Source of the DNA: Tubiluchus corallicola
Taxonomy: Eukaryota > Animalia > Priapulida
Length of the DNA: 64,000 nucleotides
Direction of reading: 5' to 3'
NCBI GenBank assembly: GCA_030141605.1
Contig: JAQGDQ010000400.1
Span: 124,001-188,000, forward strand
Shown here: piece after piece, positions 125-58,019 of the stretch
Layout: the number at the start of each line of letters is the position of its first letter
How positions within the stretch are numbered: position 1 is the stretch's first letter
The notes under the pieces: generated by a model
Told to the model about the DNA's origin: nothing
Database searches by the model: none
The model's input: the letters and a program-made list of their open reading frames with translations, nothing else
Made by a program: the position numbers and the translations under genes

Positions 125-250
125 TGAAGATTTTAAATAACCTATAAGCTTACATATCATAAGTATAAGTACTTGGGCTACTAATAGCTCTCAAATAGTC
201 GTATTAATAAAAACTTGCAGTAAAATATGCTGTCAACTGTATATTTCCAG

Positions 251-1458
251 ATGTATCAGTATACAACTTCAAATGTGAACAATACGGGTTTCATGGTTTG
301 GAAGCCAGTATGCTACGCTGGCAAAGAACACAGCTTAGAGAATGATCGGTTGGTACAAGTGTACAATCTGCGTTATGAGGTAGAGACCATACCAAAGGAT
401 AGCATAGCTTATGCTTACTATGGTTCTGTGGATCCTCGGTTGTTACAGGTTTCTGCAATAAATGTGTCATTCGGAACACAGGCTGATGGTTATTATGTTG
501 CAAGTAAATATTTGGACTGGTGAGTACCACACCCTGATTTTTATTGAAATCAAGTGAGTAATGTTTTCAGCTTTACTAACTCATGCAATGCTGCATTTTA
601 TTATACTGTGTCAAATTGTACATACAGTCAACATCGCATATGAGCCGGACCAGAAAAAACCGTCCCTTATATCCGATGTCCCTTATAGCTGAAGTTGAGT
701 CAGACCGAGGGTGTATCTAGACTTGTACTTCTGTGTACTTTTACCCATATTTTTATGGATTATTGCTACACACTCAGTGGAAACGGTATGTAGGAGCTGT
801 TCGAAGGCCGAGTTTGCGAAAAATTGAGGTTAAAAATTGATCAATTTCGCTTTGATCATATGGTCCCTTATATGCGAGGTAATTTACCTGGGTTTCTATT
901 ACACGGGACCTGAAGATATCGTCCCTTATATCCTAGTACCTCATATATAATGATTTTTACATAGGAAAAACGTTACGAAAAATCAGGACCGGTGTTGGTG
1001 GTCCCTTATAAGCGAGTACCTTATTACCGAGTTTGACTGTATTTTTATGCATGACATTTTAATGCTCTTGGAAATTTAAACAGCATTAACTCTGTCTGAC
1101 TGAGAAAATGATTGTAATATTGTTATCTCAAAGCCATTTCTAAACTAGAACTCTGAATACAACATTAGAAGAGATCTCTCTTATGTTTATTATAGCAGTT
1201 TGCACCTTTGATTTTGTGCTCTAGATACGTGAATTGCCTGGTTTATTACTGGCTGCATATGCCATTCTTACTACTTTTTTGAATTTCAGGAATGCATTGT
1301 TGGGCTCAGGTACGCTACCAGAAGATAGGCTATCACCATTAGTTATTGGAGTTATCACTGCAGGTGTTGGTATTCCGTCGCTGCTGTTCACATTTGGGGG
1401 ACTCGCCGTCGTTGTCCAGAAAGTGCGCAATAAAGAAACATTTCCAGAAATTAACTGA
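251..1458 (+). CDS. GLMP: Glycosylated lysosomal membrane protein (NCU-G1/C1orf85), last two coding exons; the 5' part lies outside the window
   Basis: Exons 251-519 (ttccag| ... TG|gtgagt) and 1290-1458 (tttcag|G) join in frame: ...INVSFGTQADGYYVASKYLDW-NALLGSGTLPEDRLSPLVIGVITAGVGIPSLLFTFGGLAVVVQKVRNKETFPEIN*. This has one TM helix and a short tail, matching the recalled human GLMP C-terminus ([30 protein letters not shown]...YQSIN). Confidence 0.88.
625..1039 (+). mobile_element. Tc1/mariner (pogo/Tigger-like) MITE, family C
   Basis: ta|cagtcaac ... gtttgactg|ta termini, internal gtcccttata repeats; second copy at 16329. Confidence 0.8.
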
Positions 1459-3159: not shown

Positions 3160-3664
3160 CAGGGATGAGAATTTTCTGCGGATACGCGGAATTCCGAGTT
3201 TTTGCCATTTTTGTAAATCGCGTAAATTCGTTGAGAAAGTTTGTACGAACCCTGTACATAATTTCACAAGCTGACTGCTAGTTGGCAGGCCGTCACTTTG
3301 TTTACATCACGTATATCAGTGTAACCACGTGTATATCTCTATGTATAAAAATATAGAATCAATTGTGCAGAGTTATTTGAGTCAATTGCAGACAGTTTTT
3401 ATATACTTTTCCATAGGAGCGGCCAGTACTTAGGCGTTTTTGAGACAATTAGGTATCATGTATCCTTGATAGTTGGATATTTTGAATTATGCATGAAACA
3501 AGGTAACTGATACTTTAAGTTCACTTAGAGGCTCTCTATGGTCACAAAATTGCAATTTGTTGCTGGCTCCAAGGGGGCTTTGCATCTCAACCCCGTTAGG
3601 GGCCTAAGGACCCAAAACCCCGGCCTGTTTCAGAGTTTTTTGCAATTTGTCATTCTCATCCCTG
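3160..3664 (+). mobile_element. hAT-like MITE, family B
   Basis: TIR cagggatgagaat/attctcatccctg; flanks ataata/ataatc; inverted copy at 7131-7648. Confidence 0.85.
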
Positions 3665-4220
3665 ATAATCACATCACACAGAGTCAGTAGTCCATTACAT
3701 ATGCATTAGGCAAACCAAATAGGGTTCATCACAGGGCAATGAGTACCAGAGCTTTAGACGAATCAGTTGCTTAAAAAAGGAGGAAGCTGTAATAGCTCGC
3801 TGTTGCTCTAAAGATCTCGTTCACACAACTTCAGTATCAATGGTAAATGGCGACTGTAGTTCCACAAAACCAAAATTCATAAAACTTGCATATGATTTTC
3901 ATTGTTGGAAAAGTGACTATTTGGCCTGGCAACCAGTCAAATAATCAAAGTGCGATTCTGATGCATGAACTTAATATGAAATGTTTTTCACTGTTTCTTA
4001 AATAATAACATGACCAGCTCTTCAACTATATGGTAACAGCAGGTTGACTATGCTAAGTGCCCTTACATGGTGTGACGGACTGAAGTGTGTGACGTAAAAG
4101 ATAATAGCAAGGTGTTACAGATAATGAAGTTTTTTATCCAAAAATGCTGTAAACTGTAGATGAATCTACGTTCCAGTCATGCTGCCAACATGATGAGTGG
4201 CAGAAAAGTAACGGCCGATT

Positions 4221-5582: not shown

Positions 5583-9190
<3,608 letters not shown>

Positions 9191-9609: not shown

Positions 9610-10717
9610 ATGAAAAGCGATTTTACTGTTATAGTATTAGGCATTTTGGTGTTTTATTCATGCTTTCTCACTCGTACTTCTTGCAATCAACAGCGAGATT
9701 ATGAAAACGTCGGTACAGTTAAGGTGGAACCAACGGTGGGTCAGCCTTGGCCAAAACCACAAATATACCAAGTACAACAAACGTATATGAACATAGACAA
9801 ACAAAATTTTGAATTTACAGTAAGTCAGAAAACATGTGATATACTGGATGCTGCAATACAACGTTATTACAAAACTATTTTTTATCCAGAAGATGGCAGG
9901 TATTGATATTTATATATCATCGTATTTAAAATGTCTTGAAAATAAAAGGTGTCTGTGAGTGTGCTTAAAATTTGTTACATTCATGATGAGTAACCTTGCT
10001 TCTATCCCTAATCCAGTGCTTACAACATAAGCTTAACTTTGAGATTCTGTGGCACTGTAATTATTTTCTGCCTTTTTATTTGTTATACGCACCAAGTTCT
10101 GCATCACATTTCAATCTCACAGCCGTACTGTGGTTTTTGTTAAGGAGTTCCTTATTGTTACTTGTGAAAAACTGTCTGTGAACATTAACACCTTGTTGAA
10201 AGTGTTGGTGCACACAGCTTTGGTGATAGTCCTGCAAGGAATGAAGAACTATGTTATGTGAAAGTTCTTTTCCTTTAGCAGGCCAGCCAGCTTCGACAGT
10301 TAATCATCGACCGACATTTAATTAGTCAAAATCACGTCAGGGTGAGCTGTCACACATTGTGTTAGTTTGTGAAGTGATGACCTAAGCATTTGTAAGCAAA
10401 CTATTTCTCAGCTTCCTCACTGATTTTTGTTCCACTGTTCTAACAAATTTAATTTTCACAGAGTTAAAAGAAGTGTTCTGAGATTTGAACCTGAAGAAAG
10501 AAAGCCAAGTCTTGTTGTTGACAGCGATTATCATGGAATCCTACAGTCTCTTAACGTTTTCCTTACTAATGACTGTGAAGATCTGCCCGCTATGAATATG
10601 GATGAGCAGTGTAGGTTTTTTAAGTTTGATTTTATTTTAAAAAATGAGTTGAAGTTAGGTAAGTTTGATAGTAAGAACAGATATCCACAACTTATGTGAC
10701 TGGGAGAGGGAGAGGAA

Positions 10718-10812
<95 letters not shown>

Positions 10813-13800
10813 AGAGAGAGAGAGAGAGAGAGAGAGATTGAGAAGGGAGAGAAAGAGAGAGAGGGGGAGAGCAAGAGAGATAGAGGGGAGAGGGCAAGAG
10901 AGAGAGAGGAGAGAAAGAGAGAGAGGGGGAGAAAGAGAGAGCGGGAGGGGGAGAGAGAGAGGGGGGGGGGAAGAATAAGCAGACAAGCCATCAACCTGTT
11001 TTCTCTTTTTATTGGTGTTGTTTCTCCAGTTGTTGCATTTATAAATAAACACGGGCCTATAAAAGGTTATAGATTATGTAATACAAATGGCAGAGTTTCA
11101 AAGTACGAATATAGTAGGTGGTGGTCTAATAAGAAAATTCAAAAACTCTCGTGAAGCATTAAATTTATTTTTGAAAATTGCTTCCTTGTATATACTCATT
11201 ATAAAAGGTCTCTTCTAGTAATAAAGAAACATTAATGCGGTGTGTCTATAATACTAAACATTTAGATACTTTTCAATTGAATTTTCCCGAAATTATATTT
11301 TCTTCCAGATGAAATAAAGATTGACAATGCAGACTATCCTGGAAAGGGAATCTTGACAAGTGACAGTATCTGGGGGATTTTGCGAGGTTTAGAAACATTC
11401 AGTCAAATTATATACGAGTCTACAGAAGGTTTAGTAAGTTCAGTTTTTTCCTGCCATAGTCAGTATTTTTAATAGATGAGAGACAATTTAATTGTTGGGA
11501 AAGCATTTCAAGATAGTTTAAGTTAGTAAGTCTGAAATCAACTTTAAATTGAACTTGTAATGTGAGTCCAGTAGCTTAAAAGTCAATGAGTATTGAATTT
11601 GCCAACATGATTATAGCTGGAGAGGTGTTTTTGTTCTGTTAAATGAATATATGATTTTATACTCATAGCTTACAATAATTCTATGCTTGGTGTGTTTTTG
11701 CATTTTTTTGAAATACTGTTTTTGAGTGAGGGAATAATTAATTCTCGTGATATCATATGCTTAGAGACCATAGTCGAGTAGTAGCTGAGCTTGTGGATGG
11801 GTGTTTGATAGGGGTGAGCATCGAACGTTCGAATCGAATTCGAACGCTCGAATTCGATTCGAATGAGTTTTTTCATTTCGAACTCTATTCAAATCCAAAA
11901 CTATAGATTCGAATAATTCAACACTTCAATCACATATGTTCTTTATCACTAAAACGATTGAAACATCATGCAATTAGCATAATTTACCTGTGATTTCTGC
12001 GCACAATTTTAAAGAAATTACTAGTCGTTTTATTGCAGAACAAAATCTAGTGATATGCATGATCTTTGTAAGACTAATTTTTACTGGTGGTTTGAAAACT
12101 TGTTCGAAAATCTTTCAATCTCAATTCGAATTCGGTTCGAATTCGAAACACTGAAGTTCGGTTCGATTCGAATTCGCTGTCTGGTAGAGAATGCTCACCC
12201 CTAGTGTTTGAACACCTGCAAAAACTGCTTCTAGTCAGCTTCATAATCTGCCATATTGCCCTGGTTGTCTACCTCATTTGTGGAGGATTCACAGGCCAAG
12301 ACAACACTGCTGGTTCAGTGTCTCAGAAAATTTTCCGTGGTAGGTTACAGTCCCTAGTCTTGTCTTAGCCATCTACAGCGTCGATTTTGGCTTACGGTGC
12401 CCTATTTATTGATAACGCTGCGCTGATCTATTACAATCAGTTTGGAGCATTGCATTCAATGTTCTAATTGACTAATTAAGATTTACGTTTGGTTTAGGAT
12501 CAGACGTATAAGATTTACGCTTGGTTTAGGATCAGACTTATAAGATTTACGCTTGGTTTAGGATCAGACTGATAAGATTTACGCTTGGTTTAGGATCAGA
12601 CTTATAAGATTTACGCTTGGTTTAGGATCAGACTTATAAGATTTACGCTTGGTTTAGGATCAGACTTATAAGATTTACGCTTGGTTTAGGATCAGACTTA
12701 TAAGATTTACGCTTGGTTTAGGATCAGACTTATAAGATTTACGCTTGGTTTAGGATCAGACTTATAAGATTTACGCTTGGTTTAGGATCAGACTTATAAG
12801 ATTTACGCTTGGTTTAGGATCAGACTGATAAGATTTACGCTTGGTTTAGGATCAGACTTATAAGATTTACGCTTGGTTTAGGATCAGACTTATAAGATTT
12901 ACGCTTGGTTTAGGATCAGACTTATAAGATTTACGCTTGGTTTAGGATCAGACTTATAAGATTTACGCTTGGTTTAGGATCAGACTTATAAGATTTACGC
13001 TTGGTTTAGGATCAGACTTATAAGATTTACGCTTGGTTTAGGATCAGACTTATAAGATTTACGCTTGGTTTAGGATCAGACTTATAAGATTTACGCTTGG
13101 TTTAGGATCAGACTTATAAGATTTACGCTTGGTTTAGGATCAGACTTATAAGATTTACGCTTGGTTTAGGATCAGACTTATAAGATTTACGCTTGGTTTA
13201 GGATCAGACTTATAAGATTTACGCTTGGTTTAGGATCAGACTTATAAGATTTACGCTTGGTTTAGGATCAGACTTATAAGATTTACGCTTGGTTTAGGAT
13301 CAGACTTATAAGATTTACGCTTGGTTTAGGATCAGACTTATAAGATTTACGCTTGGTTTAGGATCAGACTTATAATATTTACGCTTGGTTTAGGATCAGA
13401 CTTATAAGATTTACGCTTGGTTTAGGATCAGACTTATAAGATTTACGCTTGGTTTAGGATCAGACTTATAAGATTTACGCTTGGTTTAGGATCAGACTTA
13501 TAAGATTTACGCTTGGTTTAGGATCAGACTTATAAGATTTACGCTTGGTTTAGGATCAGACTTATAAGATTTACGCTTGGTTTAGGATCAGACTTATAAG
13601 ATTTACGCTTGGTTTAGATCAGACTTATAAGATTTACGCTTGGTTTAGGATCAGACTTATAAGATTTACGCTTGGTTTAGGATCAGACTTATAAGATTTA
13701 CGCTTGGTTTAGGATCAGACTTATAAGATTTATTAAGAGACTTATAAGATTTACGCTTGGTTTAGGATCAGACTTATAAGATTTATGCTTGGTTTAGGAG

Positions 13801-16800
13801 CAGACTTATAAGATTTACGCTTGGTTTAGGATCAGACTTATAAGATTTACGCTTGGTTTAGGATCAGACTTATAAAATTTACGTTTGGTTTAGGAGCAGA
13901 CATAAGATTTACGTTTGGTTTAGGAGCAGACTTATAAATTTTACGTTTGGTTTAGGAGCAGACTTACAAGATTTACGTTTGGTTTAGGAGCAGACTTATA
14001 AATTTTACGTTTGGTTTAGGAGCAGACTTATAAATTTTACGTTTGGTTTAGGAGCTGACTTGTAAGATTTACATTTATTTTGTTATGCAGCTGAGGATTA
14101 ACAGCACTTTTATTGATGATCATCCAAGGTTTTCTCACAGAGGTATCCTGCTGGATACATCCAGGCACTTTGTAAACAAGGCTGTTTTGTTAAAGAATTT
14201 GGTGAGTTTATTGTAGCAGTCAATTTTTATGTTATGCATTAGGTGTACACATATACTTAAGTTAATAAGTTATTATAACTATTTTATTTATTTGTAGGAG
14301 TGTGTAATTATTTCATTTATTTACAGTAACATGAAATAATTCAACGTTACATAAATTTGGTTTACAAGCACAAGATCTAGTACGAATAGTTTGTTTTTCC
14401 TCTGCGCAAATTTACTTTTACTGGTTAATCCAAATGTTATTATGTTGTGTATGTTTGTGAACTTTGTGTTTCATGTTTATGTTTAAAAAAAATTTTACAA
14501 CAGTTTGTGGCATTTTGTTTTTAAAGGCGATTAGGGATAGCTCGATTGATTATATATTGCTTTACTTATGTGGTATTGTGAACTTGTAAAGTTTAAGTCA
14601 CTATTTTACTCTATGTTTGTCTTATATACTTGTTGCTACTATTCTTGCAGCGAGAGAGAGAGAGAGAGAGTGGGGAGGGGGAGAAAGAGAGAGGGATAGG
14701 TCAATTGATTATATATTACTTTTCTTATGTGGTATTGTGAACTTGTAAAGTTTAAGTCATTATTTTACTCTATATTTGTAATATATACTTGCCACTATTC
14801 TTGTAACCTTGTTATTCAGTAAATTCATATTTGTACAAAAAAATCTATTGCTTAAAGACATTAGTTTAAAAAAAAATAAAAAACAATATCATTCTTATAT
14901 TTTATGGAAGAATATGTTAATTTTGCTGGTCCAATGAATTATCACATCTCTACTAAACTCCTTTCTATTTCATTTCTTTTCTCTTTTTCTCTGTCTTTGT
15001 CTATTATTTTATCTTAACTATTCTCTGTTTTTCTATAATTCTTTCTCTTGTTTATTAAGCAGTTTTTTTCTCCACTTTTCATGGTGGCCTTACAAGCTTT
15101 GCTTCTTGACCACCATGCAGCATATATTTCCTGTTGATAAACTATTGTGCCATTAGTAACTATATTAATATAGTTGTAGTTCTTTTACAATCATTGTAAT
15201 TACAATTGATTTGATGTATAACAGTTACAATGTGATAATGTAATTATGCTGAAGTGGACAATAAATTGCGTCAATTACGTCAAAAAAATTACATCAATTA
15301 ACTTTTTAAGGCAAAGTGAAAAAAATCTTTTTTTACAGCAAGTTCTTATTAATTTTACACAAATGCTTGATTTTTTTTCAGGATACAATGGCATACAATA
15401 AGCTTAATGTTTTTCATTGGCATATTGTTGATGATCATTCATTTCCTTACGAAAGTTATTTGTTTCCAGATTTAAGTGCAAAGGTGAGCCAGTTAAATAC
15501 TGTAAATGCTTGTTTAAAGGAAGACCGGACGATTGTTTAGACTCAATCTCATCTTAATTTACTGTCCAAAATATACATGTTCCTGCCTATAAAAGTTAAC
15601 AATTGTTCCTTATATTTGAATAATTAGCTTAGAATGTTAATTATCGTCAACCGAGCACAGCTATCGCTTACGTCAGTAACTAACCACAGTTTGTGCAATA
15701 GCAGGCATCTTCCCTTGCGCATCAAGCACTTGCATAAGTGTTACAGTACTGCTTAAATGCATGATGTCGCGAAAAATGGGCTCTATATCATATGACGTCA
15801 TGAAACTAACACAACAGTTCATGATCATGGCTATCACGGTACCACCTTCTGTTTGTCGGCCACGCGCACGTGACAAAAAAGCGCAGTTGCCAATCTTAGT
15901 AGATTCACTGAGCCGTGAGTAGCTTTGAAAGTTTAACAAAATTTGAGTATCCGAGGTAATTATTATTTAATCTAAACTTTGAATTAAAAAAAGCTATTAT
16001 AGTTTTCAGTGCTTTAGAGCATACTTTATTTTGAACTAATGTCTGCACAGTCGTCCGGTTTTGCTTTAATAATGCTAATGTACCCCATCAAATTGTAACC
16101 CTGTGTTAAATCTTGTTAATTGAAGCCATGTTTCCATAATGGGGGATGCTTTTGTTGCTGCAAAAACAATTAGTGCTTGGATTATGTAAATCAGACAGGT
16201 AATGATTTTCGTTGCTTTACTTTGTCGTTATTGTTTTATCAATCATAAATATTAATTGTTTCAGTAGTGTATGTCATGTAGGTAATTTTGCAGTTATAGT
16301 TATATAACACTTGATAGAGTTTTAGCTACAGTCAACTTCGGATATAAGGGACACCTCCAGACCAGAAAAAACCGTCCCTTATATCTGATGTCCCTTATAG
16401 CCGCAGTTGAGTCAGATCGAGGGTGCATCTAGACCTGTATTTTTCTGCACTTTTACCCATGTTTTTATGGATTATTGCTACACATTCAGTGCAAACGGTA
16501 TGTAGGAAGCTCCTTCGGTGATGCGAGATGTATGTGACCGCGGAAACCGAGCTGTTCGTAGGCTGAGTTTGCGATAAAATCAATCAATTTCACTTTGGTT
16601 CATTATATGCGAGGTAATTTACCTGGGTTTCTATTACGCGGGACCTAAAGATATCGTCTCTTATAACCAAAAGTCTCTTATATCCGAGTACGTTATATAC
16701 GAAGATTTTTATAAGGAAAAACGTTACGAAAAATTGGGACCTGTAGATCTTCTATTCCATTTTAAAACTTATGCATGTAGTATGTATACTCATACCTGCA

Positions 16801-19800
16801 TGCATTGTGCTCTGTGTATTATCGTGTATTGCGGAATTTTATTAGAAAGGGCAAACCTTACACAGCAAGCATCAACAACAACTCATTTCATGCCAGCTGA
16901 TTAAATATTATTAGTGTGTCTTCTACAGTCAGTGTGATGTAGAGAACAAGAGACAGAATTCAAATTTTCAGCTAAATCTGATATTTTAATTTTAACTTTT
17001 TTGTGCTGCGATTTTGCACAATTTACTTTGCTTTGCGATACGCCTTGTCACATTGTATATCACATTGTTCTCAAATTTGTTGACTGTAGAATCATAGCAT
17101 GCAAATATTGCAATTAGTGAATGCACCTGTACAAAGTTTCCTCGAGAGATAACTTTACTTGAAGAACATAAAAAATAAAAAGGAAATTTTTTCGATTCGA
17201 TTTTCAAGGTGATTTCTCGATGATCACTTATTAAATTTTTTGAATAATTGCTGTGTATTAGATGCATAATTGTTTATGATGGACAATTTTATACGCCTAG
17301 GGTGCATTTCAAGCATATACCCATGTATATACCCAGGAAGATGTTTTAGAAATTATTGAATATGCCAGGATGCGGGGCATCAGAGTTGTACCTGAGTTTG
17401 ATACACCAGGTGAGCTAATGACAGTTTGCTGCTTTACCAGTTAATCAGGTAACTTATAACGAATCTACACTAGGCATCTGTAATGAAATTCGACACAATT
17501 TACGCCTAGGACCAATTAAACTTAACTAATCAACCTGTTGGACTGCAATTCTTTCTGTATTCAATTTTAACTGGGTTTTCAAATCTAAGTGGTAGTCCTC
17601 CATTTTTCATACTTCCAAGTTGTTAAAGTCTTTCTTTATTATTACTATAAATTCCGTATTTATGGCTCACTTATTTTTTGCTGAGGATGGTATGGGGATA
17701 ATGCCGAAATGTACAAGTTAATATCTATGCAAGTATGCTAATGTACAATATGGACTTATTCTCTACATTCTCGTCTCTGCTAACGTTAATTTTGATTTGT
17801 TTTAGGACATACTCAGTCATGGGGACCTGGCATGCCAGGTTTACTCACTCCCTGTTATGATAAACATGGCCAGCCCGACGGTACCTATGGGCCTGTTGAT
17901 CCCACGGTAAATTCAACTTACAAATTTTTTGCCAAGTTTCTTAGCGAAGTTGTAGACGTCTTTCCAGACAAGTACGTTCACCTTGGAGGAGATGAAGTCA
18001 GCTTTAATTGCTGGTAGGTGTGCCAGATTCTAGCTTGTGATATTTATACCCTTATTGAGATTGGAAGTTGCAACTAATTCTATGCATTTTCATATACTTT
18101 TTAACTCTGTTATAGGAAGAGTAATCCAAAAATCACATCGTTTATGAAGAAAATGGGTTTTGGAAAGGATTATGCAAAATTGGAACAGTATTACATACAG
18201 AAGTAAGTATCATTTTCTAGTGAAAGTCAGTATGCATGGCAGTTTTAATGTATCTGAAATGCTAACAGATAATTATCAGTTCTTTTTGCTGTAAATGTTT
18301 CGCAGGTGCATGCTAAGTCCTCATTTAAACACTCCCCGTTTGGCAATGTTTCGTTTTAACAACACTGAACATTTGACACTTTTTTCTCACTTAACGATGC
18401 GTTTTTCTTTTTAACGATGATTTTTTCCTTGCTCACAGCCTTTTTTATTTTGTCAACAACATTTTTACCTAATTCGAAGCATTAAACTGTGCATGCTGTA
18501 TTATTGTGTTCTACAAACACCTAGTAACGTAAAACAGTAGAATTATTATTTATATGTTCACTTCCCGACAGACTGCTAGCCACTTGTATCAAACAAGATT
18601 TATTTGGCAGCAGCTGATATAAGCTTTATGCAAGAAATTTTACCTGCAACATGCTACTATGGTAGCTAGTATCTGGGCGACATCGTCTCAAAGTCCGCCT
18701 CGAGTAGGTGAATAATATACTCATAAATATGAATAAAATGCATAAAATGTTTAATTTATGTGAATTAAGTATCAGTCAATCAATCAATCAATTTATTTCA
18801 CTCCAGCAATACATATACAATACATCTACATACAATATTATCGAAAAAAAGAAACAGTATAGGTAAAAAAAATGTTGATGAAGTCAAATTAACCTAATAA
18901 AAGAGTTGCTGTATGATACCTTGAAAGCTTGGCTTGTTAAGGTGGCAGAAATGAGTGAATGAAAGAATGGTTAGGGTTAGCAGAAATGCTGGAAGGGAAA
19001 AAATAGTAAGATTAGGGATAGAAAGAAGGAAAAGAGGAGAAGAAACGAACAACCATATTGTATGTTTTACATAGAGCTATATTTAAATAGCATTATAATT
19101 GATTGGAGGCCATATATTGCGACTGCATGAGACATGGAAGCATTAAAATTGTATTATAAGTATGAATCAAAAATGGTCCTTTTCAAGTACTTTATGCAAC
19201 TATAAATAGTTTTGTGTATTTTTACTTGGGCACTTATTTTATTCCAGTTGTTGGGGGCTGTGAATTTAATAAAGCTGATTTTTGTCTCTGGAACATAGCT
19301 CAATTTTGTCACATTACTTTCTGTGGAAGTCTTGGTTCCTTTAACGACGTTTCACATAACGTCACGTTTTGCTGGAAGGTATTTGTGTCGTTAAGTGAGG
19401 ACTTACTGTACACAAATACAGATGGATGAAATGTACATGAGAACAGTGATCTCACTAGCAAGGAGAGTAATTGTATAGCTAAGTGATGTTGTTTAGTTAC
19501 AAAAGTTAAACAATGTCAATTTGGGTAGTAAATAGATCTTGTTATTTATCAGCATTATTTAAGATTTACTGATTAGCAGGAAAGCTAATTTTGGGCAGTT
19601 TAATCCACCATATTGTCTCCGGTTATTTCTCGATGAGGCAAAATTTGTATGCATCAGAACATGTCTGCCGGTTTAGTATCTCATATTAGAATATTGCGTA
19701 ACAAGTGCTCCAAGTGTTCAACCTTAGTAGGAAGCCATGGAGTGTGCTGAAGTTCATAAAAATATTTAATATGATGGTTGAGACTTTTTAATTAGACTTC

Positions 19801-20015
19801 CTGTTTTCAAGTTGTTTTCAAGTTACAGCGGCCAGGTCATACCAAAGAAAAATGGTACCTGCTGTTGTCCTGCCTGACGCATGGTATTTAGGGGAAAAGT
19901 GGGGTCATAATAGTCTCTGTTATGTAGTTGTAGGTTGTTATTTACAGTCGGCAATAATAGCTCTTTGAGCTAATGTTAATTGTTGACCCAAAAGCTGACT
20001 TTAAATAAAGATTCC

Positions 20016-20085
<70 letters not shown>

Positions 20086-23000
20086 GTCATTATTATTATT
20101 ATTATTATTTTTGTTATTATTATTATTATTATTATATTCTAAACTCCATTTTGTTAATTTAGTGTGCTGAATACTATGCAGACTTTGAAACATGGTTACA
20201 TAGTGTGGCAAGAAGTGGTTGATAACAAAGTAAAGGTAGGGATTATATCGTTGATAAATCAATTTTTCTATGAAGTTCATATCAGACTTTTTAATTCTAC
20301 TTTCTCTGCTGTGTTTACGATTTTAAAGCCGTTTGACAAGTGAAATGCTTGTAGATTTGTATTTCTTGATTTTTTTTCGGTTGTGCATTTCACAAATAAT
20401 TGTCAGGCAGTAATAGAGCAAGAAACGGGTGTTAGAGACATATATTAGTATTGCGTTATTTTGACTGAGAAATTTATTTAGTTTTGCATTGCTTAAATAC
20501 TGATAACACTGTTTCATACTGCAGTAAATTTTGCCACATCATTTAACTGAACTGCGGTGCAGTATTGCACAAAATCATCTTTACTCTAGCACTGTTGCTG
20601 TTCGAAATTTTACTGAAAGTGAAGAATTAGTAATATAGTGTATTAAGTTAAAACAGTAGAGAGTCTGTGGGTAGCGCATTAAAATGCTGTAGAAGTGCCT
20701 GAAGCGATACATAAACATCAAAAAACTGATGAATTGTTGTCAACTAATATTTTATTGGTTGTCACAATGCACTAACAGTTTCCTGTACAAATAGCAGAAC
20801 AGCTAATTTTGTGTGCATTTTACATCATTTATTTCAATTTGTTTGTGTAAGATATTATCTAAAGTTGCTATATTAACCCATATCAGAACAGAGTATCAGA
20901 ACACGAAATTTTGTATACATTTTACTTGATTTATTTCAATTTGTTTATATAAAATATCTAAAATTGCTATAAATAATCAACAAGCAGACACTAGGCACTT
21001 GTCACTGTCAAATGCTTGATTGCAACTCTCATATGCTATACAGTGTTTATGAAATTCTGATTGATTTTATTTGGCTTTAGTTTTTTTATTGAAAACTCAT
21101 TAATTGCAAATGAAGTAGTGGGAGCATTTAAGAATTTTTCTGCAGCCATTTTTGATTGATAAACTCCAGTCTTAATTTTTAAAATTCACGACTCACATAA
21201 TTAACAGATTATTAAGTGAAGTAAGAGTTATATAATTTCTTTCTGAACCAAATTTGTTTGCGTATTTAATGGCTTCATTACCTTATTAATGCTATTTTTG
21301 GCTACATAATTATTTGCGTGTTTAAAAAGACTGTGTCGCCTGTGTCTAGGTTAAGAGTGATACTGTTGTTGAGGTATGGAAAGGCGGCTACGAATCAGAG
21401 ATGACATATGTAACAGGTTTAGGTTTTAATACCTTACTTGCTGCTTGCTGGTATCTAGACTACATCTCATATGGCAGTGATTGGCATAAATATTACACGT
21501 GTGAGCCGTGTGCATTTAATGGTAAGGAATAGCAAGCTGGGTAGGACATTAAACGGTCAAATGAACAGTTTTTTGCTCGGCAACTGTTAGTAGATCAGAT
21601 TTACTGCTGTACTATTCTTTTTGCCTATTGCAATCATGAATCAAGGTTTGTCAACCCCGTTGCATGCAGTTTATGTTCAGTGGGTTTTGAAGATAATTCC
21701 TGAGGCAAGCATTCTTTGGTGCATGGAATGCAATGTGCTCCAAGCAATGCCAATGGCCTGTCAAAGCATACAGTAAAATGATGAATATATGAATAATATC
21801 CAAACACAATTCATTTATGGCTGCAGAAGCCCCATGGCATGCAGTTTAAGTTCTGTGTGTTCTTGAAGAGAATTCCTGGAGTAAGTTTTCTTTTTGTTGA
21901 CTACTTTAGTTGCACGGCATTTCTATAGTCAGAACCTGTAAAGGTTTTTGTGATTATTGCTTTTGAGGTTGTTTAGGCTAAACCTGGCTGCTTTTTCTTC
22001 TTGCTTTGTGCTTGAGATGTACAGCGCTGCAAAAGTGAAACTATCTATTACCTACAAGTTGTTTAGGTTGCACACGACACGGTGGTACAAGTTTGGAAGG
22101 AGCCTCACAAACTTGAGATGACTTACGTAACTTGGCTTGGCTTTAACACGCTCCTGTCATCTTGTTGGTATTTGAGTACCATAAATCCGGGAGCTGATTG
22201 GCATGATTATTATAACTGTGACCCCGAGTCTTTTATCGGTGAGCCCCTTACAACGAGCATGTGGGTTTTTGGTGGGCTGGAATGCCCTAAGGTCAACAAC
22301 ATTTAATTTAGTTAACACTAAGCATCTTTACATTTCTCTCTGCTTGTTAATAATACCTTATTTTTCATCATTTAATACTAATTTTTGGTATATTTTGTTT
22401 TTGTGTTTTGTGTTGCTAAATTGCTTTGCTGAATTCTACCTACATGTGCTGCTAAACAGAAAACTGTTCATTTGACCCACATTTTGCTTTTACACTTCAA
22501 CAACAAGCAACGAAGCTAGGCATCAACTGTCTTTTTCAGCTGTCACATTTGTTAGCTCTTGATTCGCACACTTCTTAAGCACAAAATATTGGAAATTTTA
22601 AAGTGGCGACACGAAAACAAAGCCGCATTTGCAGAACACGTATTTTTACTTGTAATTTGGGCACTACTATTACACACTCCATCTTTTCGATCTTTCTCAG
22701 GTCAAACCTGACACTATTGTGCAAGTGTGGAAAGATAAGGATCGTGATGCTGAAATGAGTTATGTCACTGGACTGGGCTTGTCCACTTTGCTTTCCAGTT
22801 GTTGGTACCTGAGTCACATAACAACTGACAAGGACTGGCCGGAGAAATATACTTGCGAACCTCTAAAGTTTAATGGTGCTGCTTTACATTATTTAGTTTT
22901 ACATCATTATCACAGGCAAATGCTTGCGTGTTTCCACTGAATTAAACGTACAGCAACCTGTTGTTCTAAGTGGATTATGTGCTAGTGGCATCTTTGCCAA

Positions 23001-26000
23001 ATTTCAATTTATAGCAAATCTTGCCACTTAAAAACACAATTGTATCTGAACACCACAATAGTTTTTGCCATTGCTGAACACCACAATAGTTTTTGCCATT
23101 GCTGAACACCACAATAGTTTTTGCCATTGCTGAACACCACAATAGTTTTTGCCTTACCTGAACACCAGAGTAGTTTTTGCCTTACAAAACTAGTTTGTTT
23201 CTATGCTTGATGCCTAGCTTCACTTTGTACAGGAGCGGACTGAAAACAGCAAGGGCCCTCGGGGGGGGGGGGGTGGGAATCTGGTGAACACGTATCGGGT
23301 CGGGGAAGATTTGTAAGCTGAAACCACAAAACATGCTGTACGAAAGTCCACAAAACTTAACGGTGTACACAGGAGTGTATATTCTGTGTACAACAATGTA
23401 CCATCTATGGCCGTAAAGGAAGTCAGAATAGAGGGAAATGATGTGGTACATCTCATTTTTTGTTGCATTCCTGCAGTGACCTGCAATTGGCATCTCTTCT
23501 AGTATATAGACTTACTGTAGACAATTAGGCCTATGAAATTTTTGGGTTTAGCTACTAATGCTCTGTACTGTAAACAATTTCAAAGTTAGCTTCGCGTCAC
23601 ATGATTATGGTGCTAGAAAGTCTTTTATTGCACTTTCCATCCTATTTCGGTCTTCTCCTTAGTTCGAAGTGATCAGTCCGCTCCTGATTATAATATTTTG
23701 ATTTTTCGTTAGTTTATATAGATATTATGTATATTTTATATATATTATTTTATATTATTATTTATATATTATATATATTTTACATAGGTTTTTGCCTGCT
23801 CATTTACACTAACTATTATTGTTATTTAGCATAAACTTGAGATAACCTTAAGGTAAACTTACGTTAAATTTACTGCTTTCACAATTTTGTCTTGATCTGA
23901 TATCGTCTGCCTTTTGTTTGCATTCGAATGTCCCAGTCTTCGTTTCACAGTACTGATTAATATCAAATTATGACTTGACAAATCTATTAAATTGTTTTAA
24001 ATTGTTATTTTTGAAGAAATATAAAATTATTGGTGTATTCTGGAGTTGTGGAGATAGGCTATCTTAGCACATTTCTGTCATTTCTGTAATGAAAATTGAC
24101 TGTTACGTATTTCTGTAGGTACTGAGAAACAAAAGCAGTTGGTAAAAGGAGGAGAAGCGTGCTTATGGGGTGAATATGTTGATGGTACCAACCTCTTATC
24201 TAGGTTATGGTAGGTATGATTTGCAAATATTGTATGAATGTAGGAAAAATATAGTATATAGCTCTCTGTACACAATTAGATATGAACAATACAGTCTTGA
24301 ACTGCTCCAAAATCTGGTTGTGCAAGACTTGTGAGCAATATTCTGTTCAAATTCTAAGTTTTGGTGCTTAGCACAGCTTCTAGTAGAATAATTGTACAAT
24401 AGTTATCACTTAACAAGATGTAATACTGTTATCACAATTTAACCATCAAGGAAGTCAGCTCTTTAGAATAATTGCAAGCACATATCTGTTACCTGTTAAC
24501 ATGAATGCTTTTTCTAGATAGACTATTAGTTGTAATTAGTGCGGCACCCGAGGTTCTAAGATCTCGATAATTAGTGGCAAAGTTCCGCACTATCTATTTT
24601 CACCGTAACGTTCAACCTTCGTTGATCTTGATTTAAAGGTCATTTAGTTGTTGAGATGCTTTCACATTGACTGTATTGACATTTTTCTACAGGCTAGTTT
24701 GTCTTGCATAATAGTTTAAAGTCGTTCGCTGGGTGTGTATAAAGTTAAATGTTTAAAAGTCGTCCTTGTAGTAGTTATCATAGTTGTTGAGATGCTTTCA
24801 CGTTGACTGTATTGACATTGTTCTACAGGCTAGTTTGTCTTGCATAATAGTTTAAAGTCGTTCACTGGGTGTGTATAAAGTTAAATGTTTAAAACTCGCC
24901 CTTGTAATAGTTATCATAGTTGCGTTCCTTGTTAGATAGAGAAAAAATTCAGCCTTAGCTGAAAAAGAAATTCAGATTGGCAGAATGAATTTGAATTTTG
25001 AAAAATAAGTTACAGTTTAGCTAGCAAGATGCCACTTGTCTTTTTTGCTATTTTTGCATTTTAAATGAGAAACTATTGTTTAAAGTTTTTAAAGTATAAT
25101 TTTTGCTTGCTCTGAGTATATCTGAGTGTCAATATAGTAGATTAAACACTGGCTGCTGTAGAATTGATCCACATTTTTTCAATTGATATTACAATGTCTA
25201 AGAGATTTAACTGTTGTTTAAGTACATTGTAACATTATGTACCAAAACAAAATTTGAAGAATGGGCTTGATACGCATAAAAAAATACTCAAACAAGAAAT
25301 ATGTGCCACTTTTGTCTCTCTGTTTTGCTAGAAATAAACTAATGTGCAATTTCAGAAGATACGTTAGAGGCTGTGGCACAAGGTTACATTGACGTATAAT
25401 CTTTTTTCTTTTGCAAAAATGGCAAGAAAAATCATAGAACGCGAAAAGTGCCACTGTTACAAAAAAGGGAGAGTAACTTGTCTGTACCAAGCAAAATCAA
25501 ATCATATGTCTTGGCGACAAATGTCATGCACAACCTTAATATTGTGGGAATACAACAAAATTAAATGTAATAAAATTGGCGTTCAACTTTGCGGTATAGA
25601 AGGCGCTATAATTAATGGTATCTTGTTAAAAGCATTCACCAACACCTCGAGGCTTTAATTAGGTTGATACTGAATTTAAGTTGTATGAGATTTACTTGAT
25701 GAAATCAATTCTCTGTTAACAGGCCACGGGCATCTGCTGTTGCAGAGCGCCTTTGGAGTGCCCAATCTGTGGATGACGTAGACGAGGCATCTCATCGACT
25801 TGAAGAGCACAGATGTCGTATGGTTAGGTACAGTTTAAATTTTATCATGGAATTAACAATTTTTTACACTTATTACATTTCACTGAGTTTCTTGCATTTA
25901 GTAAATTTCATCTTTTCGAAAGTGGAGTACAGAGTTCCCTCACTTATCGCGGGTGTTCTGTTCCAGGCCCGCCCGTGATAAGTGAATTTCTGCGAAGTAG

Positions 26001-27221
26001 GGATGCTATACTTGTTTTAGTACTTATACATTATTGTAAGTCTTTATAAACCCTCCCCACCGCAGATGAAAACTACGCACATGCGACAGTCGGATGCTAA
26101 CGTGAAATGGAAGAGCTGAGAGGGGGTAGTTGCACAAGGGGAAAGAAAATAAATTGCACGGTACCTGAGCCAATCAGCGACTGGGATACAGAGCAGCATT
26201 CTCTGGTTGGTCGCTTTCCATCAATCAACCAATCGTGTGTGGTGTACATTCTCACGCCGGCAAGTAGCATCTCAAGCGGGCGCAAGTACCACATTTCGCT
26301 TATGGTGTGTATTCATCTGCTGAATAAATACACTATTTACTGTAAATGGTAATTTTTTATGATTTATAATATTCTTTTAATGTTAGAATTAATATTTTTA
26401 ATATATTTTTATACATTTTGTGACTTTTTATGTAAATTTCGTCAAATGTATACATTACTGTACAATACGTACTACGCATGTGCAAAAATACTTTAGACGG
26501 AGTACCGCTGAAACCCGTGAAACAGCGAGTTCGCGATAAACGAACCGCGAAGTAGCGAGGGAACACTGTACTAAAATAAGGATCAGCTATTTATTTTTCC
26601 TTTTATTCACCTGCCTGTTTACACATTTCTCATTACATACATGTGTTTCTGACTGGTGACCACTAGTCAGCCATCATCCATTTACCTCTTAAATTGCATG
26701 ACCATGATACACTGCCTAGTATTTGCTGTTTCCTATCATGTTGCAGAATTTTTTAGAAGTCACATTTCGCTTGCTGCAGGGTGAGGCTTAACTGTATACA
26801 TTTTACAAATGGGGCATGATCTTTGCAAGGTGGGTGGCATCATGGTAATAATTGACATGACACGCATTGCTTTCATTAAAAAAACAACTTAAAAATAAGT
26901 CAAAGTTTGATGGACTTCATTCTAACTGGTCATCAGCCTTCCTACAGTGGTCATTTTCTTTTGTGAATGTGTTGCAATTTCATATCAGAAGTTTGATGGA
27001 TGCCCAAAAACTGAATTAAAGGACTGTCGGGATACGCTTATTCTCTACTGTAGAAGGTCAAAGTCTGCACTATCAACTATTTTACATTCTTGAAACTTTT
27101 TTTATTTTTCATCAGTACATAGCAATGTATTTGTAGTAATTTACTTTTTCGTTTCAGACGAGGCATTCCAGCAGAGCCACCAAATGGTCCAGGTTTCTGT
27201 CAGTATGAAATACAGCCTTGA
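9610..27221 (+). CDS. HEXB: Beta-hexosaminidase (GH20, HEXA/HEXB-like), 13 coding exons per isoform, about 561-562 aa
   Basis: Exons 9610-9899, 10462-10610, 11309-11433, 14091-14201, 15382-15483, 17301-17409, 17806-18013, 18116-18202, 20163-20235, [21350-21521 | 22067-22238 | 22701-22875], 24119-24209, 25723-25827, 27158-27221. All are GT-AG with compatible phases. Has a signal peptide and the motifs [43 protein letters not shown], catalytic [18 protein letters not shown] and [13 protein letters not shown]. Probably co-orthologous to both HEXA and HEXB; the symbol is nominal. Confidence 0.96.
10703..10972. repeat. (GA)n microsatellite and purine-rich tract
   Basis: Long perfect GA run decaying into GA/G-rich sequence; explains the RERE/LSLS ORFs. 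Confidence 0.97.
11809..12203. mobile_element. hAT MITE with 8-bp TSD
   Basis: TIR taggggtgagcat/atgctcacccta, perfect TSD gtgtttga on both sides, subterminal ttcgaa repeats. Confidence 0.9.
12477..14072. repeat. Minisatellite, 32 bp unit, about 50 copies, in hexosaminidase intron 3
   Basis: taagatttacgcttggtttaggatcagactta in tandem; ends about 18 nt before the exon 4 acceptor. Confidence 0.97.
15514..16069 (+). mobile_element. TTAA-flanked non-autonomous DNA transposon (family A, Kolobok-like)
   Basis: ttaa|aggaagaccggacgattgt ... acagtcgtccggttttgct|ttaa. TTAA TSD with purine-purine termini fits Kolobok rather than piggyBac (CC ends). Confidence 0.8.
16329..16742 (+). mobile_element. Tc1/mariner MITE family C, 3'-truncated
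   Basis: Collinear with 625-1039. Confidence 0.78.
18311..19408. mobile_element. Degenerate Tigger-like non-autonomous element
   Basis: Inverted ends taagtcctcatttaa / ttaagtgaggacttactg|ta, with subterminal ttaacga repeats. Confidence 0.55.
19826..20134 (+). mobile_element. 5'-truncated SINE with expanded (TTA)n tail
   Basis: Body matches 30991-31273; the (TTA)n tail at about 20017-20134 stops about 28 nt before hexosaminidase exon 9. Confidence 0.85.
21350..21521 (+). CDS. Hexosaminidase exon 10a (mutually exclusive variant, canonical type)
   Basis: tctag|...G|gtaagg, 172 nt: [58 protein letters not shown]. Confidence 0.93.
22067..22238 (+). CDS. Hexosaminidase exon 10b (mutually exclusive variant)
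   Basis: tttag|...G|gtgagc, 172 nt: [58 protein letters not shown]. Confidence 0.88.
22701..22875 (+). CDS. Hexosaminidase exon 10c (mutually exclusive variant)
   Basis: ttctcag|...G|gtgctg (weaker donor), 175 nt: [59 protein letters not shown]. Confidence 0.85.
23046..23181. repeat. 28-bp tandem repeat, about 5 copies
   Basis: ctgaacaccacaatagtttttgccattg repeated. Confidence 0.9.
23230..23686. mobile_element. MITE with 14-bp TIR (hAT-like CAG ends)
   Basis: caggagcggactga ... tcagtccgctcctg; no clear TSD. Confidence 0.7.
25930..26568 (+). mobile_element. Tigger/pogo-like MITE, family D
   Basis: ta|cagagttccctcact ... agcgagggaacactg|ta; inverted shorter copy at 46651-47060. Confidence 0.85.
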
Positions 27222-31806: not shown

Positions 31807-32690
31807 TTACTCATAGCATTGCAAGAAAGTTTTTCACAAACATCCCTGAACACGAAAGAAGTTATAAGCGTTACGCACAGCATTGCATGAAAGTTCTTCA
31901 CAAACATCCCTGAATACGAAAGAAGTTATAGGCAATACTCACAGCATTGCAGGAAAGTTCTTCACAAACATCACTGAACGCGAAAGATGTTATAGGCATT
32001 ACTCACAGCATTGCAGGAAAGTTCTTCACAAACATCCCTGAACAGGAAAGAAGTTATAGGCGTTACGCACAGCATTGCAGGAAAGTTCTTCACAAACATC
32101 CCTGAATACGAAAGAAGTTATAGGCTATACTCACAGCATTGCAGGAAAGTTCTTCACAAACTCCCTGAACACGAAAGAAGTTATAGGCATTACTCACAGC
32201 ATTGCAGGAAAGTTCTTCACAAACATCCCTGAATATGAAAGAAGTTATAGGCATTACTCACAGCATTGCAGGAAAGTTTTTCACAAACATCCCTGAATAC
32301 GAAAGACGTTATAGGCATTACTCACAGCATTGCAGGAAAGTTTTTCACAAACATCCCTGAATACGAAAGAAGTTATAGGCATTACTCACAGCATTGCAGG
32401 AAAGTTCTTCACAAACATCACTGAACGCGAAAGAAGTTATAGGCATTACTCACAGCATTGCAGGAAAGTTCTTCACAAACATCCCTGAACAGGAAAGAAG
32501 TTATAGGCATTACTCACAGCATTGCAGGAAAGTTTTTCACAAACATCCCTGAACATGAAAGAAGTTATAGGCATTACTCACAGCATTGCAGGAAAGTTCT
32601 TCACAAATATCCCTGAATACGAAAGAAGTTATAGGCATTACTCACAGCATTGCAGGAAAGTTCTGCACAAACATCCCTGAACACGAAAGA
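31807..32690. repeat. Minisatellite, 64 bp unit, about 14 copies
   Basis: ttactcacagcattgcaggaaagttcttcacaaacatccctgaatacgaaagaagttataggca in tandem. Confidence 0.96.
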
Positions 32691-39643: not shown

Positions 39644-56565
<16,922 letters not shown>

Positions 56566-58019
56566 GTAAGTAACATAGAGGTCCTCATTTAGAGTGTGCG
56601 TTGCGTTGGTCCTCATTCAATGGCCGTCACGCTTTTCCGATGAGCATAACCTGTACAGGAAGCAAAGAATTGTTAGTATCGATGTAAGTCTTATATTGCT
56701 CAAAGCAAAAGATAAGTTTCGATGGAAGTTCGGGTCACATTAATATTTGAGAAAAATGTTAGAAAGTTTCGTAATATAATTGTGATACGCGCCTCGTGTA
56801 ACTAGTAAAATCACTTTAAAGTCGCGATAACTTTGGACACACTTATTTTGAATGAAAAATGGTGTCATCTGGTTACCATGTAATATAAACACTTATCCCG
56901 CCAGGTGCCTGAGCGAACTTTTTTTGCCATTACTATTATCAACTACAAACAATCCAAAAGTTAAACGAGAGATTATTAGTTCTATTTTTTGCTTATTGAT
57001 GAATAACTTTGTCCACTATGTATTATGTAATGAAAACCAGTTATCAATGGTAATATAATAATCCTCAACTCTGCTAGTTAACACTGACAAAGTAACAGAA
57101 TCATTTTAGCAAGCTAAAAATGAACTCTGTGATCCTTGCAGAAGTCCATACTTATGTGTAATTGTAATGTGTAGTACTTGTAATGCATTCTGAGGTATAG
57201 TCCTGTGGATTAAAGCTATGCGAGCAAGTTATCGATAAATTTTTACATAAACACAAAGATTTAGTCAACATGAATAGTCAACTTTGTTATGCATGTCTTC
57301 AGGTTGTCCACCAGCTTACGGCATTTTGTTTCAAATGTGCCCTTTTGTGAGGTTCATTTGGCGACAGATATTAGTGATATAAATTTCTTTTGCATTTTTA
57401 AGCAAGTCACTTCATGCACGTATATTATATGGTACTTTCAGTATTTATAAGTGCATGGTAAAATACAATGAATGTAATTCAGGTGTTAATTTTTCCTTTA
57501 AATAATTCGTTTTTGGAAAAAGACTAAATGAACCAAAAGCGATGAAGTCTTCGCTTTATCTTTTTCCTTTGCTGACTCTATAGCATTGTTTCTTTACTCC
57601 GAAGAATTAACAAAAGTTCAAAGTTACGCCTATTTTTGTTGATTGAGTAACTCAATTTGAGTATTAGGTCCTGCGTACATGGAAAATTCCGTCTGTTGAC
57701 CGCTTGGTTTAGTTAGAAACGCTAAACTGACACAGTTCCAAGTTTCAATTCATACTTGAATGTTTTTCTCACTTCTGGTTGCGAGTTCAGCCACTTTCCT
57801 CCAAGTATTTTGACACAATGTACACAGTAAAGCAATATGGAGTCTAGTATCAAGAGCTAACAATGGCTGGAGACACATAATTTGCTTGATGCACTAAGAG
57901 ATGCACATAGAGATGAGCCCGTGTAGTCAAGCATGTTAGCTTTCAATATATATAACTGAATTGATTTTTGATTATTTCTGCAAAATTGTGAAAAGTGTTT
58001 TCTATGAGATACGGTTGTA

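Follow-up and report, generated by a model that had tools for sequence, protein, structure and literature searches.

Three tandem copies of an active-site exon in a priapulid beta-hexosaminidase gene, a likely mutually exclusive cassette

Can a single beta-hexosaminidase gene make several enzymes by choosing among tandem copies of one active-site exon? The question arises from a stretch of 64,000 nucleotides of the priapulid Tubiluchus corallicola (contig JAQGDQ010000400.1, positions 124,001 to 188,000), hereafter the window, whose own numbering is used throughout. A sequence-only reading of this DNA had proposed a Dscam-style cassette giving three isoenzymes from one gene. We consider it probable that three tandem, intact and selected exon copies form a mutually exclusive cassette, in which copy a provides the main form and copy b, and less surely copy c, provide alternatives with changed substrate preference and dimer contacts.

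The gene and its three exon copies

The hexosaminidase gene occupies positions 9610-27221 of the forward strand and contributes 13 coding exons to each mRNA. It has both domains of the HexA/HexB-type GH20 enzymes (PF14845 and PF00728), and the catalytic HxGGDE motif is found in the gene model as HLGGDEV. Judged by these features the product is a GH20 HexA/HexB-type beta-hexosaminidase, with activity and dimerisation predicted. Its exons, all on the forward strand, are the following.

Exon 1: 9610-9899, forward strand; PF14845 (GH20b) above the Pfam cut-off
Exon 2: 10462-10610, forward strand, from the spliced gene model
Exon 3: 11309-11433, forward strand, from the spliced gene model
Exon 4: 14091-14201, forward strand, from the spliced gene model
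Exon 5: 15382-15483, forward strand, from the spliced gene model
Exon 6: 17301-17409, forward strand, from the spliced gene model
Exon 7: 17806-18013, forward strand; PF00728 (GH20 catalytic domain) above the Pfam cut-off
Exon 8: 18116-18202, forward strand, from the spliced gene model
Exon 9: 20163-20235, forward strand, constitutive, 73 nt, 5' of the cluster; joined to copy a in a contig of run X2
Copy a: 21350-21521, forward strand, 172 nt; canonical active-site exon, found spliced alone
Copy b: 22067-22238, forward strand, 172 nt; good donor (GTGAGC), presumably used
Copy c: 22701-22875, forward strand, 175 nt; weak donor (GTGCTG), use presumed and least sure
Exon 11: 24119-24209, forward strand, constitutive, 91 nt, 3' of the cluster
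Exon 12: 25723-25827, forward strand, from the spliced gene model
Exon 13: 27158-27221, forward strand, from the spliced gene model

The repeated exon, which we take to be the equivalent of human HEXA/HEXB exon 11, lies exactly where the sequence-only reading had placed it, as three copies that are each bounded by AG and GT, run from phase 0 to phase 1 and contain no stop codon. In a peptide alignment of the three copies 29 columns are invariant, which is the shared scaffold described earlier. The copies match human HexB/HexA chains (E 1e-17 to 1e-11), align with HexB 416-471 (3LMY numbering) and all retain W424 and Y450. In the 64-kb window we found no second copy of any other of the 13 exons, as had been claimed, and no fourth copy of the cassette exon.

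The gene stands head to head with a ribosomal protein S17 gene (PF00833; 6824-8527, reverse strand), with about 1.1 kb between them. The window also holds the 3' exons of a lysosomal NCU-G1/GLMP gene (224-1455, forward strand; PF15065) and, at 56398-56589 (forward strand), an exon of another gene downstream with an HJURP_C repeat (PF12347), a domain known from MEF2 proteins. About 50 copies of a 32-nt unit (12477-14076) end directly before the acceptor of exon 4. At about 31850-32680 a tandem repeat yields repeated open frames in two phases, and no Pfam match was found in the frame adjoining it.

All three copies have lengths of 1 mod 3 (172, 172 and 175 nt). When the eight possible inclusion patterns (8/8) were computed, a full-length protein resulted in 3/8, the single-copy ones, in which exons 1-9, one copy and exons 11-13 encode 561 aa (a), 561 aa (b) or 562 aa (c); the rule that only one copy at a time gives a full enzyme is thus borne out. 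With zero, two or three copies included, translation ends at 426-491 aa, the stop codon lying 171-495 nt above the last junction; for each double inclusion the early stop falls 320-362 nt above it. The fact that exactly one copy preserves the frame suggests that the gene likely makes alternative enzymes. Like homologous mutually exclusive exons, the copies are tandem, lie in one intron interval, have equal phases and are compatible with the frame singly.

The donors of a and b fit the consensus at 6/9 and 5/9 places, which is typical for the gene, and that of b is similar to the donors of exons 5 and 6. The donor of c (ATG/GTGCTG, exon/intron) fits at 3/9 places and is the weakest among the gene's 14 donors, the others fitting at 5-7. 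Two ways of enforcing exclusion were ruled out: steric exclusion, in which the intron is too short to splice, by the spacers of 545 and 462 nt between the copies, and a U2/U12 incompatibility by the donors (GTAGGG, GTAAGG, GTGAGC of b and GTGCTG of c), which are all U2-like when compared with the U12-type splice-site consensus.

A contig of run X2 (record 12, 301 nt) maps on copy a. One of its loose ends agrees with the last letters of exon 9 at 18/21 places and the other with the start of exon 11 at 30/30, the join to exon 11 being a loose-end match beyond the mapped stretch. Exons 9, a and 11 are joined in this contig and b and c are skipped: copy a is spliced alone. That run X2 represents RNA is a guess, and the contig might conceivably be a processed copy. 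It differs from the window at 11/177 letters and so comes from a relative or a divergent population; 8 differences are listed within copy a, of which 5 are silent. Four X2 contigs mapped in all, none of them on b or c, and since contigs drop rare forms this is not evidence about these copies. We infer that b and c are used as well: for b this is quite probable, and for c, the least sure given its poor donor, it could go either way.

Are the copies genuine, and have they been maintained? Nucleotide identity between copies is 103-110/174-175 (about 60%), and the 100-nt flanks are identical at about 50/105 aligned positions, i.e. they are unrelated. Contigs of run X1, which may be the window's own source, span the intron-exon edges of a and b plus the flank of c; they differ from the window at 4-5 per 200 bases and are of low depth. 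The divergence of the copies, their unrelated flanks and the X1 contigs at their edges argue against a duplication created by assembly, the outcome that the sequence-only reading had named as fatal to its proposal. With these observations, and with no other exon duplicated, we give an assembly artefact, or fragments of a second, nested gene, a negligible chance of being the explanation.

Synonymous divergence is as heavy as had been described. Third positions are identical at 17-21/57 sites, against 36-44/57 at first and second positions, and pS is 0.80-1.03 (saturated) in all three pairs, with pN at 0.26-0.30; the comparison of dN/dS among the copies that had been suggested as a check gave bootstrap upper bounds on pN/pS of 0.38-0.58. 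We took as a conservation reference 155 homologous stretches, in which 17 columns are at least 85% conserved. Copy a keeps 16/17 of these columns, b 17/17 and c 16/17, and differences from a shun them both in b (1/17 vs 20/39 other columns, p=0.001) and in c (2/17 vs 22/40 others, p=0.003). In 4000 simulations with 0.5-1.0 changes per site, a neutral copy remains stop-free in 1.6-3%. These comparisons indicate that b and c have been under protein-level purifying selection for most of their history; the tests are averages over the whole branch and are compatible with recent decay of b or c. Protein searches with b and c yielded no close relatives (2/5 and 0/1 candidates), and a tree of 34 full-length proteins places the gene product with a non-teleost animal but no more closely than that.

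Variant residues and the enzymes they would give

Copy a carries D452, Y453 and Y456 (HexB numbering), the common state: D or N stands at 452 in 139/155 homologous stretches and Y456 in 129/154. Copy b has S452, T453 and P456, and copy c has S452, H453, T456 and D457. The active site includes D452 and Y450 (PMC7789739, PMC6499197), D452-L453 of human beta as opposed to N423-R424 of alpha decides how 6-sulfate and sialic acid are handled (PMC3587417, PMC3445047), and Tyr456 contributes to the partner subunit's site (PMC4449183).

From these residues we infer that b and c alter both substrate preference and dimer contact. In human HexB the acidic D452 repels 6-sulfate and sialic acid. Neither b nor c has it, and they would accept charged or otherwise different glycans; His453 of copy c is a state also found in the canonical teleost hexa exon. 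Both are also without Y456, which completes the partner subunit's site, so that mixed dimers would be unlike a/a dimers. Human Y456S is listed as an adult Sandhoff allele (PMC6646740), and b and c might therefore be weak enzymes; the insect OfHex2 has neither human pair and does not cleave charged substrates (PMC3445047), and an alpha-like enzyme need not follow from S452 by itself. In human HEXA/HEXB (PDB 2GJX, 1NOU, 3LMY; PMC3587417), variants likewise differ at 452/453 and combine as dimers. There, however, they are encoded by two genes, whereas here they are alternative exons of one gene, and the human alpha pair is N-R where b and c carry S-T and S-H.

Intronic stems and the choice among copies

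Three perfect inverted repeats, 18, 15 and 14 bases long, lie in the introns of the cluster, and 0/1000 shuffles contained such a set. The five best continuous helices are S1, S3, S2, S4 and S5, given here together with a weaker candidate.

S1: arms 21555-21575 and 22457-22477, forward strand, 21 bp of which 18 perfect Watson-Crick; encloses b
S2: arms 22512-22526 and 23207-23221, forward strand, 15 bp perfect; encloses c
S3: arms 23230-23243 and 23673-23686, forward strand, 14 bp perfect; shortens the intron before exon 11
S4: arms 21137-21149 and 21817-21829, forward strand, 13 bp; encloses a, crosses S1
S5: arms 20686-20699 and 21916-21929, forward strand, 14 bp with G-U; encloses a and S4, crosses S1
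Weak candidate pairing: 21332-21340 and 22605-22613, forward strand, over the acceptor tract of a; -19.4, rank 20

Helix energies were computed from the stacking values of Turner 2004. The helices of ranks 2-5 exceed all 605 shuffles and rank 1 is equalled or passed by 5, in a comparison where shuffles underestimate the stem content of real genomic DNA. At -29.5 or better there are three helices in the cluster tile and at most one in each of the 16 other tiles of the window (a single one in 4/16); at -24.5 or better there are 5 in the cluster tile and 4 in one other. The arms of S1-S3 are unique within the window, and S1 and S2 appear in both MFE and centroid folds.

Elsewhere in the window, inverted-repeat pairs at 3160-3664, 7125-7654, 11809-12203 and 16337-16688 have a spacing of 350-530 nt, the first two sharing an arm; they are probably small non-autonomous DNA transposons. 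The loop of S2 holds, after copy c, 4.9 copies of a 28-nt unit (23046-23181).

How could such stems select one copy? In folds of growing length, the pair probability of S4 is 0.85-0.87 and that of S5 is 0.98 before the right arm of S1 is added; once it is added, S1 reaches 1.0 and S4 drops to 0.0. In a short transcript S4 and S5 are predicted to loop out a, bringing exon 9 near b. Once 22457-22477 is transcribed, S1 would displace S4 and loop out b in its turn. With S1, S2 and S3 all formed, the unpaired distance from the donor of a to exon 11 would shrink from 2597 to about 507 bases, and a would become the default. The combination of S5, S4 and S2 would expose b, and nonsense-mediated decay would remove double inclusions. 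No strong stem hiding both a and b was found: the best candidate, 21332-21340/22605-22613, has a pair probability of 0.39 and an energy at background strength, and it would hide a and b and cross S2.

Crossing long-range stems, each looping out one alternative exon, are thus present as a prediction, and together they form a predicted srp/Dscam-like switch favouring a. Drosophila srp exon 4 and Dscam exon 4/9 (PMC4691838) likewise have crossing upstream and downstream stems that loop out alternative exons, and stronger pairing favours one exon, as predicted here. Those pairings are conserved and proven by mutation, whereas the stems of the window are predicted from one sequence. A single shared docking site of the Dscam exon 6 type has no support in the window, the one candidate (I8), 20719-20736 as alternative partner of the left arm of S1, having a pair probability of 0.0. 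The term Dscam-style is therefore apt for the crossing stems, as a prediction, but not for a shared docking site. Whether S1-S5 are causal for exon choice is, in our estimate from these models, an even call.

The same exon in other animals and the readings weighed

A profile of a, b and c matched 680 proteins. Among the best 150 of these 680, the top two are read-through open reading frames that each contain two copies, separated by 59 nt in P0008 and by 44 nt in P0009; two hexa models from fish also carry a pair of copies. A search seeded with the fish variant found 42 teleost proteins, from carps to gobies. When 100 rows were classed, 78 had the variant only, 16 the canonical version only, 4 both and 2 neither, the excess of variant-only rows being due to the variant seed; one protein classed as canonical only, P0013, in fact holds both versions. 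Full-length hexa models with either one or the other version exist in 5 species (Amphiprion ocellaris, A. percula, Puntigrus, Astyanax and Xyrichtys), and in many teleost species the second version is the only form in the model listed. This second version is strongly conserved in teleost hexa (P0013, P0033, P0165-P0262) as WYLD[LQK]PGPTH[NDS]W, with a CYLC motif.

The teleost exon lies between neighbours of 73 and 91 nt, as in the window, and comes as a canonical copy and a variant whose 452-457 loop is altered, the variant having Pro456 like copy b. It differs in having two copies with the variant first and D452 kept, whereas the window has three copies, of which b and c are without D452, and its copies form a clade separate from those of the window in the exon-peptide tree. 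Supplement S4 of PMC8933327 (fish RNA-seq) contains an rMATS MXE row under the label HEXB, in which the two alternative exons measure 181 and 175 nt and their neighbours 91 and 73 nt, with an FDR of 0.0016 and a PSI change of -0.136. The first two lengths are those of the two hexa copies of that fish species, and the last two are those of the neighbours in the window. The second teleost version has apparently been overlooked and is apparently undescribed: in the sources consulted, the fish event is on record only as annotation (RefSeq/Ensembl models) and as that table row of PMC8933327 supplement S4. The X1/X2 isoforms of Onthophagus, considered as a parallel case, were set aside as they differ by truncation and not at this exon.

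The same exon is also duplicated elsewhere. From metagenome contigs, 79 loci of 195 relatives were kept, of which 45 look genomic. Tandem arrays of 2-6 copies of the cassette exon occur in 8/45 genomic loci or, by other counts, in 6/20 sequence clusters and 4/23 loci with both flanking exons seen; the loci were retrieved with the cassette exon itself, which inflates the rate, and several are related. Duplicated neighbours were found in none (exon 7 0/9, exon 8 0/22, exon 9 0/31, exon 11 0/35, exon 12 0/25; total 0/122), and the difference from the cassette exon has p=2e-5. One canonical copy is kept in every array, and Ser452 is found in 9/14 intact extra copies vs 14/155 homologous stretches, rows that are not independent. 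Spacers between copies range from 36 to 1262 nt and are short in L016, L022 and L023 (36 nt), L005 (58 nt), P0009 (44 nt) and P0008 (59 nt). Very short spacers would force steric exclusion, a different mechanism acting on the same exon.

Some arrays have features of their own. L051 (800-3928) has six tandem copies, two with stops and the canonical copy last, and its alternating pattern suggests duplication of a two-exon block. In L005 (416-817) a D-Y copy is paired with an S-R copy, that is, beta-like and alpha-like pairs in one gene, and in L064 (1203-1383) and L065 the S-R type is the sole copy. With S-R as an extra copy in one place and as the only copy in the others, the exon and gene duplication routes may be interchangeable. 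A scan of other animals' arrays for stems (16 loci, 30 shuffles each) found no stem stronger than background enclosing a single copy in L014, L046, L005, L016 and L022, and strong stems in L007, L025 and L026 that look unrelated to exon choice. L046 (3079-4840) has three copies; its three best helices, around copy 2, copies 1+2 and copies 2+3, do not beat the shuffles, and two helix arms are adjacent at 3879-3910.

A tree of 39 exon peptides (58 columns, resolving little beyond this group) unites a, b and c in one clade (96/94) that excludes the fish copies and the other arrays. An independent origin of the arrays in different animals is likely on these grounds, with old gene conversion as the alternative. 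The recurrence elsewhere lowers the rarity of the window's cassette and raises its generality.

Could b and c be formerly used exons that are now silent or decaying spares, with S1-S3 keeping them out and only the a enzyme made? We think this unlikely. It would explain why only a was found spliced, why the donor of c is weak and why the three strongest stems all favour a, and it agrees with the turnover seen elsewhere, where L051 has broken copies and the extra copy of L016 has lost 9 nt by deletion. Yet b and c retain their frame, length class, AG/GT sites and 16-17/17 conserved residues at a distance where synonymous sites are saturated; moreover b has a donor of the kind found at exons 5 and 6, copy a is itself enclosed by two stems (S4 and S5), and the fish event is both used and regulated. 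If b and c were instead poison exons, included with a to cause mRNA decay or a truncated protein and so tune the enzyme level, every double inclusion should yield an early stop, which it does 320-362 nt above the last junction, and some teleost models do stop just after the variant exon. Such exons would have no need for protein-level selection in the frame of a, yet b and c show it, and we regard this explanation as very improbable.

Another reading accepts the cassette and differs in the choice mechanism only, thus overlapping with the explanation that we prefer: weak splice sites and protein repressors, together with nonsense-mediated decay of double inclusions, would account for exclusivity, the stems being chance or transposon remnants. 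This we consider a real, if minority, possibility. With all copies at 1 mod 3, decay alone removes doubles; transposon-like inverted repeats of similar strength exist elsewhere in the window, and other animals' arrays either are without such stems or have spacers of 36-59 nt. On the other hand, the five top helices each surround a single copy or lie on the way to exon 11, their arms are unique in the window and their order of formation gives a switch. A mutually exclusive cassette thus remains our preferred reading, as the sequence-only reading had proposed, supported by the frame, by selection, by one a-only contig and by the same event in fish. Of the three isoenzymes, that of a stands on a spliced form, whereas those of b and c are presumed and the donor of c is weak. 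More tentatively worded still should be a wider reading, in which this exon is a recurrent duplication hot spot that would give many lineages, teleosts included, HEXA/HEXB-like diversity by splicing, always with one canonical copy and with D/N452 repeatedly turned into Ser in the extras. The crossing-stem switch would here serve up to six isoenzymes, homo- and heterodimers with differing tolerance of sulfated and sialylated glycans; we hold this whole reading to be doubtful at present.

Mutually exclusive homologous exons are known as a kind, and it is the recurrence and the RNA switch that are the interesting parts. Exons of this kind that lie near functional sites have been described as a class (PMC7954323), and known cases, including substitutions derived from tandem exon duplication, are likewise tandem and of one phase (PMC7954323, PMC8373072, PMC9741552). 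The differing residues in the survey of PMC7954323 generally cluster at the functional site, as they do in the window; the case of the window differs in having three copies and in that its exon has been duplicated repeatedly across unrelated lineages. The main texts of PMC7954323 and PMC4494069 and their supplements as far as searched make no mention of hexosaminidase, while the MXE-MOD resource of the former and one supplementary file of the latter may list fish hexa. No account of a cassette in a hexosaminidase was found in the literature searched, which is thin in subscription journals; this agrees with the earlier statement that none was known in a GH20 enzyme, but the same exon is duplicated in other animals.

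With this gene, a housekeeping lysosomal enzyme would join those that vary their active site through exchangeable exons, and it is in this exon that the residues distinguishing the alpha (Tay-Sachs) from the beta (Sandhoff) subunit lie. The conserved second exon version in teleost hexa bears on fish models of gangliosidosis (Tay-Sachs). The five stems constitute a small, directly testable three-exon RNA switch outside the arthropod model genes, and the repeated duplication of the cassette exon, its neighbours spared, is a natural experiment that sets splicing against gene duplication as a source of new enzyme specificity.
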